From positions 2,304,001 through 2,368,000 of the forward strand of contig CBDDPY010000002.1 in assembly GCA_965232515.1 (NCBI GenBank): a DNA stretch of 64,000 nt. The letters run 5' to 3'. The position numbers and the translations under genes are program-made. Source of the stretch: Alphaproteobacteria bacterium. Its GTDB lineage: Bacteria; Pseudomonadota; Alphaproteobacteria; GCA-2731375. Within the stretch, counting starts at the first letter, position 1. Each line of letters opens with the position of its first letter. The notes below the pieces were generated by a model that had not been told where the DNA came from, did no database searches, and saw only the letters and a program-made list of their open reading frames with translations. Positions 2,505 to 30,678 of the stretch are shown piece after piece.

Positions 2505-2545
2505 CCGATCTCAACAATAGGGACAGTCCCTATTGTTGAGATCGG
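2505..2545. repeat. Perfect 20-1-20 palindrome between convergent genes (bidirectional terminator or REP-like)
   Basis: CCGATCTCAACAATAGGGAC-A-GTCCCTATTGTTGAGATCGG. Confidence 0.85.
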
Positions 2546-2575: not shown

Positions 2576-3082
2576 CTATATCTTCTGGTTCAATCTGGGC
2601 TTCCAGAATGGCCGGAACAGCTCGATCTTCGGGCAGCGGTTCATCACCACCTTGAGGCCGGACGCTTCCGCCAGCCGGGCGGCAGCGTCGTCGCGGACGC
2701 CGATCTGCGCCCACAGCACCTTGGCGCCGATGTCGATGGCCTCCTCGGCAATGCCATAGAGCGCGTTGGAGCTGCGGAACACCTCGACCATGTCGACGGG
2801 CCGGTCGATCGCCGAGAGGCTTTCATAGACCTTCAGCCCCCGGATCTCGCCGCCGGCCTCGACGGGGTTCACCGGGACCATGTCGTAGCCGGTCTCGTGC
2901 AGCACGCGCAGCACGCCGTAGCTGAACTTGGTCGGATCGGGACTGGCGCCGACCATGGCGATGGTCTTCACCGATTTGAGGATGCCGGCGAGATATTCGG
3001 GCGGATAGTCGTCGTCGTGGTTCATGAAGACGGGCTGGGTGGCGTCCGCCCCGGCGGCGTCGACGTTGGTGGGCTCGGTCAT
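2576..3082 (-). CDS. CoA-binding protein (YccU-like)
   Basis: KTIAMVGAS...PVNP...VDMVEVFR...KVLWAQIG...VVMNRCPKIE; start overlaps the ferredoxin stop (ATGA). Confidence 0.85.
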   Translation of the reverse strand: MTEPTNVDAAGADATQPVFMNHDDDYPPEYLAGILKSVKTIAMVGASPDPTKFSYGVLRVLHETGYDMVPVNPVEAGGEIRGLKVYESLSAIDRPVDMVEVFRSSNALYGIAEEAIDIGAKVLWAQIGVRDDAAARLAEASGLKVVMNRCPKIELFRPFWKPRLNQKI

Positions 3083-3453
3083 GGCGCATCCTCCCGTGGC
3101 GTCGCGATGTCGGGCTTCAGTTCGTGGGGCGCGAGCGGGCTGGCGAAGGGATTGCGGTAGAGCTTGTCGTGGCTGTCGACGCCGACGTCCAGCACGCAAT
3201 CGGTCAGCGGGCGCGCGACGCAGAGCAGGATATAGCCGTCGTTGAGCTGGCGGTTGTTGAGCGCGACCGCGGCGCGCTGATCGACCTCACCGGACAGCAG
3301 CTTCGCGGCGCAGGAAATGCAGCCGCCATACCTGCAGCCGTAGGGCAGCGACAGGCCCGCCGCCTCCAGCGTGTTGAGCAGGGGCGCGCGCCGGCTGACC
3401 TCGACGACGCGATCTTGCCGGTTCGCCACCGTGATGCGGACCCGGTCGCTCAC
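3079..3453 (-). CDS. Plant-type 2Fe-2S ferredoxin
   Basis: LPYGCRYGGCISC...ILLCVA motif; GTG start overlaps the upstream TGA. Confidence 0.9.
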   Translation of the reverse strand: MSDRVRITVANRQDRVVEVSRRAPLLNTLEAAGLSLPYGCRYGGCISCAAKLLSGEVDQRAAVALNNRQLNDGYILLCVARPLTDCVLDVGVDSHDKLYRNPFASPLAPHELKPDIATPREDAP

Positions 3454-4808
3454 AGCCAGATATCCGACGTGCAATCGCCGCCGGGATAGCGGGTCTCGTG
3501 ACAGCGCGCCGGCCCGTTCGGCTCCTTGCCGAAATCGACGAAGAAGTCGGGATCGATCTCCATGCCGCCGTTTTCGGTGTCGCAGTTCACCATCACCATG
3601 CAGCCACCGTTCTCGCGAATGTCCGGATAGAACTGGTTGTCCCAGGTCGAAAACAGCGAGGTCGTGACGTACAGCCGCTTGCCGTCGAGGCTGAGCTGAA
3701 TCATCTGCGGCCCGCCGGTGATGCGCCGGCCGTTGACCAGCGGCGCGCGGTTCAACAGGCCGCCCATCCAGACTTGGCCGGTGAACTTCGGATTGTGCGG
3801 ATCCGAGATGTCGTACTGGCGGATATCACCGTGCAGCCAGTTGCAGAAATAGAGAAAACGGTCGTCCATCGAGATCAGGATGACGGAGATCACGCCGGGC
3901 ACCGGGATCGGCCATTCCGGATGTGGTTCGTTCCCGACGTCGATGATCTTTTCCCAGCGCCATTTGCCGGCGTCGTCCTTCCACCAGTGAATGATGTTGG
4001 CGCTCAACGCCGCGCCGACGAAACCGTGCGAGGAATCCGGATTGTGGTGAAAGCGGACCTCGAGCGGGATCAGCCCGTCCTCGCCGAGATAAAAGGTCTG
4101 TTCGACCCGCTTCTCTTCGAAATTCCAGAAATGCAGCTCGCGCCCGTATTTCAGGTGGCCGACTTCCTCGAGATCGAAACCGGGCATGAAGGTGTTGGGC
4201 GCGGCCCATTCGCTGGAGACCATCACGTTGTGGCGCGGCTGGTACCAGAAGTCGTAGTTGAACTTCATGCCGCCAAGATCGTTTTCCCAGCGCCCGACGA
4301 TTTCGAAGTTCTCGTTCAGGTGCAGAAAGCCGCCCGGCGCGTTCCCCTGCGCGTCGCCCAGCATCGAGATGATGATGTCGGCGCCGAGGCAATGCACCGT
4401 GTGCGGCGCCGAGAGATCGGTCTTGGCTTTGATCTCGGCACCCTCGATCACCTTGTGCAACGTCGGCCTTCGCGGATCGTCGCCGCAATCGACGATGTGC
4501 AGGTTGCTGCTGCGAACGCCGGGCACGATCAGATAGCGCCGCTCCTTGGTGGCGTCGTGGTGGCAGGAGGAGCAGGCGTTCCAGCCCATGTGATGCAGTT
4601 CGTCGCCAATGCCCGGCATCTCGAGGCGGCTGATGACCTGGCTGTAGGTCGGGCTGTCGGGATCGGCGTCGATCGTCGCCAGGTAGTCCGGCTTCTGGAT
4701 ACCGGTGCCGATATACAGCGCCACGGTGTAGAGAAGTTTTTCGCGTGGGGCCCGCATGGCCTCCGCCGGCGACGCGTATCCCGGCCCGCAGCACTCCATG
4801 GTGCTCAA
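3450..4808 (-). CDS. Selenium-binding protein SBP56/SELENBP1 family (putative methanethiol oxidase)
   Basis: CCGPGYASP..AM..PREK, DELHHMGWNACSSC, YDFWYQPRHNVMVSSEW, GGPQMIQLSLDGKRLYVT and C-terminal GGDCTSDIW; TTG start 7 nt after GGAGG. Confidence 0.9.
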   Translation of the reverse strand: MSTMECCGPGYASPAEAMRAPREKLLYTVALYIGTGIQKPDYLATIDADPDSPTYSQVISRLEMPGIGDELHHMGWNACSSCHHDATKERRYLIVPGVRSSNLHIVDCGDDPRRPTLHKVIEGAEIKAKTDLSAPHTVHCLGADIIISMLGDAQGNAPGGFLHLNENFEIVGRWENDLGGMKFNYDFWYQPRHNVMVSSEWAAPNTFMPGFDLEEVGHLKYGRELHFWNFEEKRVEQTFYLGEDGLIPLEVRFHHNPDSSHGFVGAALSANIIHWWKDDAGKWRWEKIIDVGNEPHPEWPIPVPGVISVILISMDDRFLYFCNWLHGDIRQYDISDPHNPKFTGQVWMGGLLNRAPLVNGRRITGGPQMIQLSLDGKRLYVTTSLFSTWDNQFYPDIRENGGCMVMVNCDTENGGMEIDPDFFVDFGKEPNGPARCHETRYPGGDCTSDIWL

Positions 4809-4849
4809 TGGCTTTCCTCCCCAGGGCTTTTGTCTTGTTGTCGGCCCTG

Positions 4850-4891
4850 ATTGTCTCATAAAATGAATCAATTGTCTCGTAGATTGAGAGC
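4850..4891. promoter_or_regulatory. Tandem candidate operators in the divergent SBP56/IclR promoter
   Basis: ATTGTCTC at 4850 and 4871 (21-bp period); the second copy forms TCTC-N7-GAGA. Confidence 0.5.
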
Positions 4892-4897
4892 TTCCGT

Positions 4898-5665
4898 ATG
4901 AACCTCGAACGCCTGATTGCCGTTCTCGAAGCCGTCGCCGCGGCGGGCCGGCCCGTCTCGGCGTCCGAGGTGCAGGGCGTTACCGGCCTGCCGCGCCCGA
5001 CCTGCTATCGCCTGATCCAAACGCTCGCGGCACACCGGTTCCTGGACAACGTCGAGAACGACGGTCGCTGGCTTCTGGGAGACCGGTTCAAACGGATCGC
5101 CATGATGGGGCACTCCGACGCCGATATCCGCCTGGCGACGGCGCCGTTGATCAAAGAAGCCGCAATCGCCGATGGCGACGCCTATTTCCTGTCCCGGTTC
5201 CGCAACAACAGCGTCGAGATCATCCACGTCGAAACGCCGGACGATCCGAAAGCCTCGTTCATTCATCCGGGCCTGGGGCGGCGGCCGATGCACGCCTGCT
5301 CGTGTTCGAAGGCGATCGCGGCGTTTTCCGATAGCGCCCTTCAGCACCGGATTATCGACGGCGCGCTGAAGGCCTATACCGATCGCACCAAGATCGACGC
5401 CGCGGATCTTGCTGCCGAGTTCGCGGCGATCCGCGCGCGCGGCTTCGCGGAATGCGTCGAGGAAATCGAGGTCGGTGTCGCCAGCGTCGCCGCGCCGGTC
5501 CATATGGCGGATGCCAGTGTCCCGTTCTCGATCGGCGCCATCGGCACCATTCGGCGCTTCAGCGACGCCCGCCGATCTCAACTAGGCGTAAAACTGATCG
5601 AGCTCGCCGGCCAGGTCCGTAAGACCATTGCCACCGGATACCTTGATTCCGAGCGGGCGGGCTAA
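4898..5665 (+). CDS. IclR-family transcriptional regulator
   Basis: LERLIAVLE...GLPRPTCYRLIQTL HTH; PMHACSCSKAI and RARGFA..VEE...GVASVAAPV. Confidence 0.9.
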   Translation: MNLERLIAVLEAVAAAGRPVSASEVQGVTGLPRPTCYRLIQTLAAHRFLDNVENDGRWLLGDRFKRIAMMGHSDADIRLATAPLIKEAAIADGDAYFLSRFRNNSVEIIHVETPDDPKASFIHPGLGRRPMHACSCSKAIAAFSDSALQHRIIDGALKAYTDRTKIDAADLAAEFAAIRARGFAECVEEIEVGVASVAAPVHMADASVPFSIGAIGTIRRFSDARRSQLGVKLIELAGQVRKTIATGYLDSERAG

Positions 5666-10757: not shown

Positions 10758-11792
10758 ATGACCCACACGCTGTTGCCGACGACGATCGTCGGGAGCTATC
10801 CGCAACCCGATTGGCTGGTCGATCGGGCGAACCTGTCGGGACGGTTTCCGCCGCGCGTGCGGGCGCGCGAGCTCTGGCGGGTGGCCGACGAATGGCTGGA
10901 GCAGGCCCAGGACGACGCGACATTGCTGGCGATCCGCGATCAGGAGCGCGCGGGCCTCGATATCGTCTCGGACGGCGAGATGCGGCGGGAGAGCTATTCC
11001 AACCGCTTCGCCACCGCCTTGGAGGGCGTCGACATCGACAATCCGGGCACGGCGCTCGACCGCACCGGTCATCCCAACCCGGTGCCGCGGGTCGCCGGGC
11101 CGATCAAGCGCAAGCACGCGGTCGAGCTGCGGGATCTGGAATTCCTGCGCGCCAACACCGACCGGCAGGTGAAGATGACGGTGCCAGGGCCCTTCACCAT
11201 GACGCAGCAGGCGCAGAACGACTATTACGACGACGACAAGGCCTGCGCGCTGGCCTATGCCGCGGCGGTGAACGAGGAGATCAAGGACCTGTTCGCCGCC
11301 GGGGCCGATGTGGTGCAGATCGACGAGCCCTATATGCAGGCCCGGCCCGAGAAGGCGCGCGACTACGGCGTCGAGGTGCTGAACCGGGCGCTCGACGGCG
11401 TCGAGGGCACGACCTGCGTGCACATCTGCTTCGGCTATGCCGCGATCGTCCATGAGCGCCCGTCAGGCTATTCCTTCCTGCCTGAGCTGGAGGGCGCCCA
11501 CTGCCACCAGGTCTCGATCGAGACCGCGCAATCCAATCTCGACTGCAGCGTGCTGGAAACGCTGCCAAGCAAGACCGTCCTGCTGGGCGTGCTCGACCTG
11601 TCGGATATGACCGTCGAGACACCGGAGACGGTGGCCGGCCGCATCCGTCGCGCGATCGAACACATTCCGGCCGAGCGCATCGTCGTGGCGCCGGATTGCG
11701 GCATGAAGTACCTGCCGCGCGACGTCGCCTCCGGCAAGCTTCAGGCCATGGTACAGGGCGCCGCCATCGTGCGCGCGGAACTGGACCGCTAA
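10758..11792 (+). CDS. Single-domain cobalamin-independent methionine synthase II family (MetE C-terminal-like)
   Basis: PTTIVGSYPQP, SDGEMRR, QIDEP, Zn ligands HIC, E and APDCG. Confidence 0.8.
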   Translation: MTHTLLPTTIVGSYPQPDWLVDRANLSGRFPPRVRARELWRVADEWLEQAQDDATLLAIRDQERAGLDIVSDGEMRRESYSNRFATALEGVDIDNPGTALDRTGHPNPVPRVAGPIKRKHAVELRDLEFLRANTDRQVKMTVPGPFTMTQQAQNDYYDDDKACALAYAAAVNEEIKDLFAAGADVVQIDEPYMQARPEKARDYGVEVLNRALDGVEGTTCVHICFGYAAIVHERPSGYSFLPELEGAHCHQVSIETAQSNLDCSVLETLPSKTVLLGVLDLSDMTVETPETVAGRIRRAIEHIPAERIVVAPDCGMKYLPRDVASGKLQAMVQGAAIVRAELDR

Positions 11793-29620: not shown

Positions 29621-30657
29621 CCTGAGTTCACAAACGAAGTGCAACACCTTGTGTTGGAGGTGTTGCGATGGGATCCGATTACGCCCAGTTGTCACTGGAA
29701 GAGCGGTGTGAGATTTCCCGCCTTCAAACCGCCGGCCGCTCGATCCGGCAAATCGCGGCAGCTCTGGATCGCGCGCCATCAACAGTCTCTCGCGAACTGA
29801 AACGCAACAGCGGCCGACAGGTCGGCTACAAGCCAGCCTATGCCCAGCAGCAGGCCCGCGCCCGGCGCTGGTCCGGGCCCCGCCTGCAACGCGATCCGAG
29901 CTTGCGCGACCGCGTCCTCGACGGCCTCAAACGCGGCTGGTCGCCGGAACAGGTCGCCGGCCGGCTCGCCCACACCGCCGGCCAACACGTCATCTCGCAT
30001 GAAAGCATCTACCGCTTCGTCTATGCCCAGCTCGCCCGCACCCAGGACTTCCGCTGGCGCCTGCTGCTGCCGCGCGGCAAAAGCAAACGCGGCTGGCGCG
30101 GCCGCAGGGGCGGCAGCCCGGCCAGCTTCATCGCCGGCCGCGTGCCCATCGCCGATCGCCCGGCCGACGTCGACGACCGCACAACCCCGGGACACTGGGA
30201 AGCCGACCTCATGCTGTTCGCGACCTACGGCCAGGCCATCCTCGTCTGCCATGAACGTCTCTCCCGCATCCTCCTCGCCACCCGGCCACCGGGTAAGGCC
30301 GCACAGCCCATCGCAGACCACCTGCACGCCCTGTTCGCCGACCTGCCGCCCGACCTGCGCCAGACCGTCACCTTCGACAACGGCACCGAATTCGCCCGCC
30401 ACACCGAACTCCAGCACATCGACATGCAAACCTACTTCTGCGACCCCCATGCCCCCTGGCAGAAGGGCGGCATCGAAAACGCCATCGGCCGCTTCCGACG
30501 CTTCATCCCCCGAAAGACAAACCTCGACGAGCTCAACCGCCGGCGCCTGCACCAATACCTGCGCGCCTACAACACCACGCCGCGGAAATGCCTTGACTAC
30601 AGAACCCCAGCCGAGGTCTTCATCGAACACCTGTTGCACTTCGAATGTGAATCCACC
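29621..30657 (+). mobile_element. IS30-family insertion sequence
   Basis: Imperfect IRs TGAGTTCACAAACGAAGTGCAACA (29623-29646) and TGTTGCACTTCGAATGTGAATCCA (30632-30655), 20 of 24 matching; TCC (or CC) duplication; ends uncertain by 2 bp. Confidence 0.85.
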
Positions 30658-30678
30658 TCCTGGCCTTCGCCAGGATGA
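29668..30678 (+). CDS. IS30-family DDE transposase
   Basis: SIRQIAAAL.RAPSTVSRELKRN HTH; GHWEAD, TFDNGTEF, PWQKGGIEN. Confidence 0.95.
   Translation: MGSDYAQLSLEERCEISRLQTAGRSIRQIAAALDRAPSTVSRELKRNSGRQVGYKPAYAQQQARARRWSGPRLQRDPSLRDRVLDGLKRGWSPEQVAGRLAHTAGQHVISHESIYRFVYAQLARTQDFRWRLLLPRGKSKRGWRGRRGGSPASFIAGRVPIADRPADVDDRTTPGHWEADLMLFATYGQAILVCHERLSRILLATRPPGKAAQPIADHLHALFADLPPDLRQTVTFDNGTEFARHTELQHIDMQTYFCDPHAPWQKGGIENAIGRFRRFIPRKTNLDELNRRRLHQYLRAYNTTPRKCLDYRTPAEVFIEHLLHFECESTSWPSPG

Follow-up and report, generated by a model that had tools for sequence, protein, structure and literature searches.

In a 64,000-nucleotide stretch of an alphaproteobacterial genome (assembly GCA_965232515.1, contig CBDDPY010000002.1, positions 2,304,001 to 2,368,000; here called the window), the genes for an SBP56 protein, a plant-type [2Fe-2S] ferredoxin (Fd) and a YccU-like CoA-binding protein follow one another and lie divergent from an IclR regulator gene. 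Our reading, held with moderate confidence, is that they form a methanethiol-inducible operon for a cytoplasmic, copper-dependent methanethiol oxidase (MTO) of the SELENBP1 type, and that the co-encoded Fd probably serves as an accessory reductant which activates or reactivates the enzyme. What the present analysis shows is how the genes are laid out and conserved, which residues and fusions they have, the homology of the regulator, and the motif; the reading is grounded on these. The enzyme is of a known type, and the accessory module and the regulon are apparently undescribed. Papers are cited by their PubMed Central numbers, and what is said of them refers to the accessible portions of their text.

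The SBP56 matches PF05694 over its full length (residues 6–452) with 705.7 bits against a cut-off of 34. Its putative copper ligands are H72, H73, H136, H139, D186 and E250; these six residues, together with Cys79 and Cys140, are invariant in 79 homologues, and Cys446 is nearly so. Cao et al. (2024) define cluster 1 MTOs by three cysteine motifs, GWNACS, HTV(I)HC and GGDC(S/T), and report RdMTO and RlMTO active from E. coli (PMC10936201). All three motifs are present in the window SBP56, at C79, C140 and C446. With an offset of −3 in the window numbering, the copper-site residues equal His75/76, His139/142, Asp189 and Glu253 of RdMTO (Roseobacter denitrificans WP_011568565 / Q166Z5), which is likewise leaderless and carries the CC, GWNACS, HTVHC and GGDC(S/T) motifs; the spacing from His75 to Glu253 and the C-terminal cysteine are kept as well. 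Through the published RdMTO alignment the residues are also conserved with human SELENBP1, C. elegans SEMO-1 and plant SBP1, the cytosolic copper-dependent thiol oxidases of this family. Schlemminger et al. (2026) found RdMTO strictly copper-dependent, about 53% identical to SELENBP1 and loaded with 0.17 Cu per protein (PMC13603461). The window SBP56 is likely such a known enzyme, a SELENBP1/RdMTO-type (cluster 1) cytoplasmic copper MTO. The original prediction, made from the DNA letters alone, had proposed a candidate alternative methanethiol module; as far as the enzyme goes its type is not new, RdMTO having been characterised (PMC10936201, PMC13603461); a putative cytoplasmic MTO had also been described before (PMC9003020).

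The absence of a signal peptide, as first proposed, is confirmed by a proxy test for export, which found no twin-arginine (Tat) motif and no hydrophobic leader. The Pfam domain begins at residue 6. Within the first 45 residues, hydropathy over an 11-residue span reaches 1.59 at most, and it does so inside the conserved domain. The termini had been likened to those of animal and plant SELENBP1. Both CCGPGY and GGDCTSDIWL are present, but the N-terminal CC motif is that of plants, cyanobacteria and alphaproteobacteria, most chordates having CxxC (Dervisi, PMC10277263).

The MtoX enzymes of Hyphomicrobium VS and Ruegeria pomeroyi (operon SPOA0268-0272) belong to the same Pfam family and likely catalyse the same reaction. 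Unlike the window enzyme, they are periplasmic, with a signal peptide and with SCO1/SenC and MauG genes alongside (a tryptophan tryptophylquinone cofactor being proposed; PMC5739008). The window operon has none of these, which upholds the earlier view of a cytoplasmic SELENBP1-like enzyme with partners other than SCO/MauG. Against the MtoX model NF052453 the SBP56 scores 156.3 bits, where the equivalog cut-off is 650, and with MtoX of R. pomeroyi it shares only 27% identity.

The list of 120 homologues did not include RdMTO, which was compared through a proxy, a Paracoccus seriniphilus protein (L084) that has the RdMTO length, the primer-derived termini and 12/12 published residue numbers matching. 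The window SBP56 is 71% identical to it. In a tree of 154 SBP56 sequences from bacterial and archaeal homologues (9 duplicate, near-duplicate or partial loci omitted), the window clade comprises 111 tips, 106 of them with both partners, and has as its sister a group that includes the RdMTO-like clade, with FastTree support of 0.999 for the joint clade. For the grouping of this enzyme type with eukaryotic SELENBP1 we rely on PMC13603461 and PMC10277263. The loci of the RdMTO proxies read SBP56-Fd-DUF2182, unlike the SBP56-Fd-YccU of the window clade. No description of the genes neighbouring RdMTO was found in the accessible text of PMC10936201 or PMC13603461. P0092, a protein listed for Nymphon striatum (a sea spider) and annotated as methanethiol oxidase, shares 80% identity with the window enzyme and is probably bacterial contamination.

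Conservation of the gene neighbourhood had been named beforehand as a test, and the trio is conserved. The close-locus survey covered the best 80 of 572 confirmed loci and is therefore weighted towards near kin; short flanks excluded three of them. Both partners lie within 1.5 kb downstream of SBP56 in 65 of the 77 remaining loci (37 Fd-YccU, 27 YccU-Fd and 1 single open reading frame (ORF)); seven others have Fd only, one YccU only and four neither. Among these loci are ones from Acidobacteriota, Chloroflexota, Actinobacteria and the Alpha-, Beta- and Gammaproteobacteria, with enzyme identity of 80–92%, and Fd is found in 72 of the 77, cyanobacteria included. For a more even sample, 401 genomes were drawn from the class of the host; SBP56 matches occurred in 25, two weak ones being dropped. 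There Fd follows 4/4 and YccU 3/4 of the SELENBP1-type genes, and neither stands beside any of the 11 genes of RlMTO/Sulfolobus type or the 10 distinct MtoX-like ones. Among 401 genomes of the Rhodobacteraceae, the family of G002 (L071), 49 have the enzyme; Fd follows it in 50/50 loci (50 of 53 matches examined), and YccU is present in 44 of 45 loci at or above 76% enzyme identity. Haloferax mediterranei, at 55% enzyme identity, keeps the SBP56-Fd pair. Related genomes are not independent, and the counts are therefore not statistical tests; with both partners at 65 of 77 close loci against 0 of 11 and 0 of 10 for the other two types, the SBP56-Fd-YccU arrangement is more than chance. The link between enzyme and Fd is not obligatory. 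Correlations of protein distances (0.48–0.63, 106 loci) were considered as a sign of co-evolution and ascribed to block inheritance.

The Fd matches Fer2 at E 1e-13, and its cluster ligands Cys40/45/48/78 (C-x4-C-x2-C...C) are invariant. An AlphaFold2 model (pLDDT 87) has the plant-ferredoxin fold, with Foldseek placing it on 1rfk at a TM score of 0.92 by target. Beyond the Fer2 domain a C-terminal tail, L-Y-x-N-P-F, is invariant in 69/69 Fds and echoed in Haloferax. The score against the PetF-like model TIGR02008 is 71.6 bits (cut-off 81.15), and the acidic surface of that group is missing too: the median net charge is +1 for 78 members, against −13 and −15 for two PetF-like ferredoxins. A profile of this Fd, with at most 11 candidates scored per genome, matches 4/4 genomes of the class sample that have this enzyme type, each time beside the enzyme, and 0/397 of the others. 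By these measures the Fd forms a private, dedicated subfamily of SELENBP1-type oxidase loci. XylT and YfaE are small [2Fe-2S] maintenance ferredoxins that reactivate neighbouring iron enzymes. The window Fd resembles them as a small ferredoxin gene beside a metalloenzyme, by analogy and not by membership: they serve iron enzymes, and the window protein scores 39.5 against the YfaE cut-off of 75.

Fd and YccU also occur as a natural fusion. Both domains are carried by 45 of 52 longer Fd homologues, and the linker is trimmed in 18 of 44 measurable cases, which argues for an evolved fusion; among the 52 there is no fusion of Fd to a reductase. AlphaFold2 gave pTM 0.49 and pLDDT 64.6 for one such fusion (P0165), from an alignment of 35 rows at 82% mean identity. 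Apparent SBP56-Fd fusions were set aside: P0149, P0152, P0156 and P0176 are frameshifted through the C-terminal motif of the enzyme, and in P0158 and P0160 the motif is missing, which suggests a deletion or a misassembly. A 745-codon SBP56-Fd-YccU frame in a Burkholderiales metagenome-assembled genome (L081 5878-8115) could be genuine or could stem from a 2-nt error. It stands alone, a slip of 2 nt against L017 would account for it, and it was not counted as evidence.

The YccU-like protein is a stand-alone CoA_binding_2 domain (PF13380, 128 bits, cut-off 22.8) whose best PDB match is 2duw (E 3e-35). It shares the family motifs GAS, PVNP, VFR, WxQ and RC with 2duw, 1iuk and 2d59, and belongs to a specialised subfamily with an ELFRPFWKP tail. 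Going by the family name and the PDB titles, it presumably binds CoA. The YccU profile is found in 3 of the 4 genomes of the class sample that have the Fd profile, and in G246. The second YccU of the host, 47% identical to the window protein, is encoded between an enoyl-CoA hydratase gene (ECH; PRK08139) and metY, near rplM-rpsI (L114 4322-7016, G000:C2 ~952-955 kb), a position which suggests a link of the YccU family to thiol assimilation. The role of the window YccU in its operon is weakly constrained.

The IclR protein has only two matches at E<1e-20 among 72,556 plasmid records. One is the IclR of a Phaeobacter trio locus (47%), and the other is WP_011242047, that is SPOA0268, encoded directly upstream of R. 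pomeroyi mtoX (39.5%). Conversely, the window IclR is the best match of SPOA0268 in the host genome, with 163 bits against 69 for the next. It is likely the orthologue of SPOA0268, which heads the mtoX operon. R. pomeroyi mtoX is induced about 14-fold by methanethiol (PMC5739008), a figure for operon induction and not for the role of the regulator. By analogy, the window operon is probably methanethiol-responsive.

Between the divergent genes lie tandem palindromes overlooked in the original prediction, of 15 bp with the consensus TCTCA-N5-TGAGA and a period of 20–22, which are a predicted IclR operator. The matrix was seeded by eye from such divergent regions; its mean score is 22.8, against 7.0–8.6 in 8 retrained shuffles. 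Where the IclR is divergent, leave-one-out scores reach 15 or more in 37/40 loci, and most of these sites are no further than 8 bp from the start of the IclR gene; without a divergent IclR the figure is 4/68. The window palindrome ranks first in the 7.39-Mb host genome (22.1, next site 16.8). R. pomeroyi, which was out of sample, has a similar tandem palindrome scoring 17.1, located 5 bp before the SPOA0268 start. At two loci of the RdMTO-like clade (L051, L148) this IclR and the motif recur upstream, there in the same orientation. The 16.8 site of the host (G000:C2:6945996; L181 ~4997-5031) precedes an aldolase-like gene and comes shortly after another IclR gene, whose own site it probably is.

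The features of the locus are collected in Table 1. The GTGA and ATGA overlaps and the divergent IclR of the first description were re-read and agree. SBP56 likely starts at TTG 4808, with GGAGG 7 nt upstream; ATG 4799 is an alternative. The Fd gene starts with the GTG that overlaps the SBP56 stop, and the YccU gene, joined through ATGA, has its own GGAGG. Longer upstream starts at TTG 4871 (SBP56), TTG 3474 (Fd) and TTG 3199 (YccU) were rejected because the homologues begin at the shorter starts. The terminator-like hairpin, like the palindromes, is an addition to the earlier description. A sigma-70 scan of the divergent IclR/SBP56 region found no site. In RNA run X1 one contig spans 2656–4055, but adjacent genes are equally covered and the run therefore does not demonstrate co-transcription.

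Table 1. Features of the SBP56-Fd-YccU locus (window coordinates)
Feature	Position	Strand	Remarks
SBP56 / SELENBP1-type methanethiol oxidase gene (likely)	3450..4808	-	452 aa; PF05694
Plant-type [2Fe-2S] ferredoxin (Fd) gene	3079..3453	-	124 aa; Fer2 domain
YccU-like CoA-binding protein gene	2576..3082	-	168 aa; PF13380
IclR regulator gene	4898..5665	+	divergent from SBP56-Fd-YccU; likely SPOA0268 orthologue
Tandem 15-bp palindromes, predicted IclR operator	4854..4889	.	between the divergent IclR and SBP56 genes
Intrinsic-terminator-like hairpin	2505..2545	-	19-bp stem + T tract; ends operon

Elsewhere in the window, a short cobalamin-independent methionine synthase-like gene with a Meth_synt_2 domain only (10758–11792) lies 6 kb from the operon. 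An ORF at 29668–30678 bears HTH_38 and is possibly an IS30-type transposase.

The host genome also encodes DmdA (544.7 bits, cut-off 410), an FrmA-like protein (61%), and persulfide-dioxygenase-like and MetY proteins; no MtoX above the cut-off was found in it. FrmA-like genes, candidate formaldehyde dehydrogenases, are found in the flanks of one trio locus and of five loci from the RdMTO-like sister clade, and the R. pomeroyi operon shares such a neighbour with that clade. In the RdMTO-like clade (L084 6749-7552; L051, L147, L148), DUF2182 replaces YccU and the FrmA-like gene is nearby. On the Phaeobacter plasmid the trio is followed by genes for a rhodanese, a metallo-beta-lactamase (MBL) hydrolase, ECH, an acyl-CoA synthetase and a GcvT-family protein. 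By tblastn, the 52 trio loci with at least 3 kb of downstream sequence include 12 with a flavin oxidoreductase gene, 10 with OsmC, 5 with a DmdA-like gene (one of which is confirmed above cut-off), 3 with rhodanese and 2 with a persulfide-dioxygenase-like gene. The OsmC-like and MSMEG_0569-like flavin oxidoreductase genes recur near the trio (L006, L008, L010-L012, L021, L048, L057-L059) and are a possible peroxide or reductase arm. At L072 (Chroococcidiopsis), where Fd is missing, two other genes follow SBP56, downstream of 7356, which by eye we take to resemble the methionine-salvage genes mtnD and mtnB.

The host has a second SBP56 (L002, G000:C2:6626243-6627622), which is of the RlMTO/Sulfolobus type and 43% identical. 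A gene for a His-rich membrane protein without Pfam hit comes after it, and the same neighbour follows 11/11 genes of this type, making it a candidate metal-delivery partner of that clade. RlMTO and Sulfolobus ST0059 (PDB 2ECE) are also cytoplasmic SBP56 proteins, and RlMTO is an active MTO. They differ from the window enzyme by an identity of about 43%, another C-terminus and this neighbour, with Fd or YccU at 0/11 loci.

No description of the Fd and YccU partners, of the Fd-YccU fusion or of the operator was found in the literature; subscription papers and the supplements outside the search (Table S7 of Eyice et al., PMC5739008; Fig. S1 of Schlemminger et al.; Table S6 of PMC10203303; most of that of Cao et al.) could alter this. 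The word 'ferredoxin' does not occur in the accessible main texts of PMC5739008, PMC10277263, PMC12262181 (SAR116), PMC12992908 and PMC13380501, or in the available supplement of PMC10936201. We found no published report of a ferredoxin or CoA-binding partner of SELENBP1, SEMO-1 or plant SBP1. In a field population, three consecutive IMG genes with the annotations CoA-binding protein, ferredoxin and selenium-binding protein shift expression together (ratios 0.42, 0.34, 0.47; PMC10203303).

The proposed course of events is as follows. The IclR would occupy the tandem palindromes and probably leave them as methanethiol rises, in line with the induction of the orthologous SPOA0268-mtoX operon. 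In the host, methanethiol would be supplied by demethylation of dimethylsulfoniopropionate (DMSP). Going by its close characterised homologues, SBP56 very probably uses O2 to oxidise CH3SH, the products being formaldehyde, H2S and H2O2, or else sulfane sulfur. Candidate enzymes for formaldehyde, persulfides and thiol assimilation are encoded by the host. For the next step the balance is about even: Fd may dock on SBP56 through its conserved tail and supply single electrons, which would load or re-reduce the copper site or free the enzyme from a state in which it is oxidised or blocked by a thiol. It would thus fill the role that SCO/MauG have for periplasmic MtoX, being helpful and not obligatory, and would be fed by a housekeeping reductase, since the operon encodes none. 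Since RdMTO is active alone and oxidase turnover does not call for electrons from elsewhere, Fd is read as a maintenance reductant of the copper site or of a blocked cysteine, on the pattern of XylT and YfaE; the 0.17 Cu per recombinant RdMTO leaves room for a helper. Finally, and more speculatively, YccU could offer CoA as the thiol on which the sulfur product, or a mixed disulfide, is carried, acting with Fd; this guess comes from its fusion to Fd and the metY-linked paralogue.

Several points weigh against the reading of Fd as an accessory reductant in a methanethiol-inducible operon. Recombinant RdMTO, RlMTO and SELENBP1 are each active without another protein, and activity can be restored with Cu2+ alone (PMC10936201, PMC13603461, PMC10362175), in a reaction that requires no external electrons. 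The activity of RdMTO alone in E. coli makes strict dependence on the partners unlikely, and so do L072, L080 and L082, three of the four close loci with neither partner, where no signature-level Fd was found in the genomes as searched, whose completeness is uncertain. Four of the 77 close loci and 2 of 3 haloarchaeal loci (the latter for Fd) are without the partners. Rhodobacteraceae loci at 67–70% identity have YccU in 0/5, DUF2182 following in 2. A divergent IclR is found in only 39/105 trio loci, and the unrelated host site at 16.8 nearly equals the R. pomeroyi site at 17.1, which is therefore near the whole-genome background, so that its position carries the argument. No assayed member of the window's own clade, judged by proxies, was found in the accessible papers. 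In G246 (L183, G246:C1:1144500-1152500) IclR, YccU, ECH, acyl-CoA synthetase and DmdA-like genes are kept without SBP56 or Fd, adjoining an integrase-like gene.

The single-protein activity of RdMTO and the retention in G246 after loss of SBP56 and Fd would also fit a stand-alone oxidase, with Fd and YccU co-regulated but acting downstream, in sulfide and sulfane handling or the CoA-ester steps of DMSP demethylation, and never contacting the enzyme. The host's other YccU between ECH and metY points the same way, as do L037, with YccU but no adjacent Fd, and L170, where the signature Fd has no SBP56 within the 3.3 kb of sequence examined. We consider this rather unlikely, seeing that the Fd profile finds none of the 397 genomes lacking this enzyme type, that Fd sits directly behind the enzyme from Proteobacteria to haloarchaea, and that ECH occurs in 0/52 of the trio loci surveyed downstream.

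It is less probable still that Fd is a stoichiometric partner in each turnover of a reductant-dependent, oxygenase-type system yielding formaldehyde, water and sulfane sulfur (via CoA) in place of H2O2. Cao et al. detected sulfane sulfur but not H2O2 (PMC10936201), the tight translational coupling suggests near 1:1 synthesis, and the Fd-YccU fusions and the rhodanese and persulfide-dioxygenase-like neighbours would suit it; yet copper-supplemented RdMTO yields H2S, H2O2 and HCHO without a partner (PMC13603461), and a reductase is missing both from the operon and from the longer Fd homologues. Least probable is a shifted activity of the window clade, on another thiol or in disulfide synthesis as in some plant SBPs, which the partners would serve. 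The 71% identity to the RdMTO-like clade and the presence of YccU could hint at it, and three substitutions turn plant MTOs into disulfide synthases (as cited in PMC13603461). One of the three falls on a copper ligand, and the window copper ligands are all intact; the regulator and motif are common to the methanethiol-induced mtoX operon, and the host has DmdA.

Methanethiol oxidation sets the share of DMSP sulfur that escapes from, or is retained in, marine cells, and the enzyme family is that of human SELENBP1. Its catalytic mechanism, copper loading and sulfur product are disputed, and the published assays, as far as accessible, used the lone protein. The operon brings in a pair of candidate partners as well as a regulator whose operator is predicted, and these are open to study in cultured carriers such as Phaeobacter inhibens P30 and Paracoccus seriniphilus. 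The trio is also a marker for a methanethiol sink missed by MtoX-specific models (49 of 401 genomes in the one family sample). A bolder and doubtful extension is that SELENBP1-type oxidases are natively multi-part redox systems, in which the tail-bearing Fd activates the copper centre and CoA-loaded YccU removes the sulfur, one IclR/operator controlling the periplasmic and the cytoplasmic systems alike. If so, the assays to date would have measured a partly loaded, partner-less enzyme, and the dispute over H2S and sulfane sulfur could be explained. YccU proteins would gain a function, and a reductant partner would be predicted for human SELENBP1.

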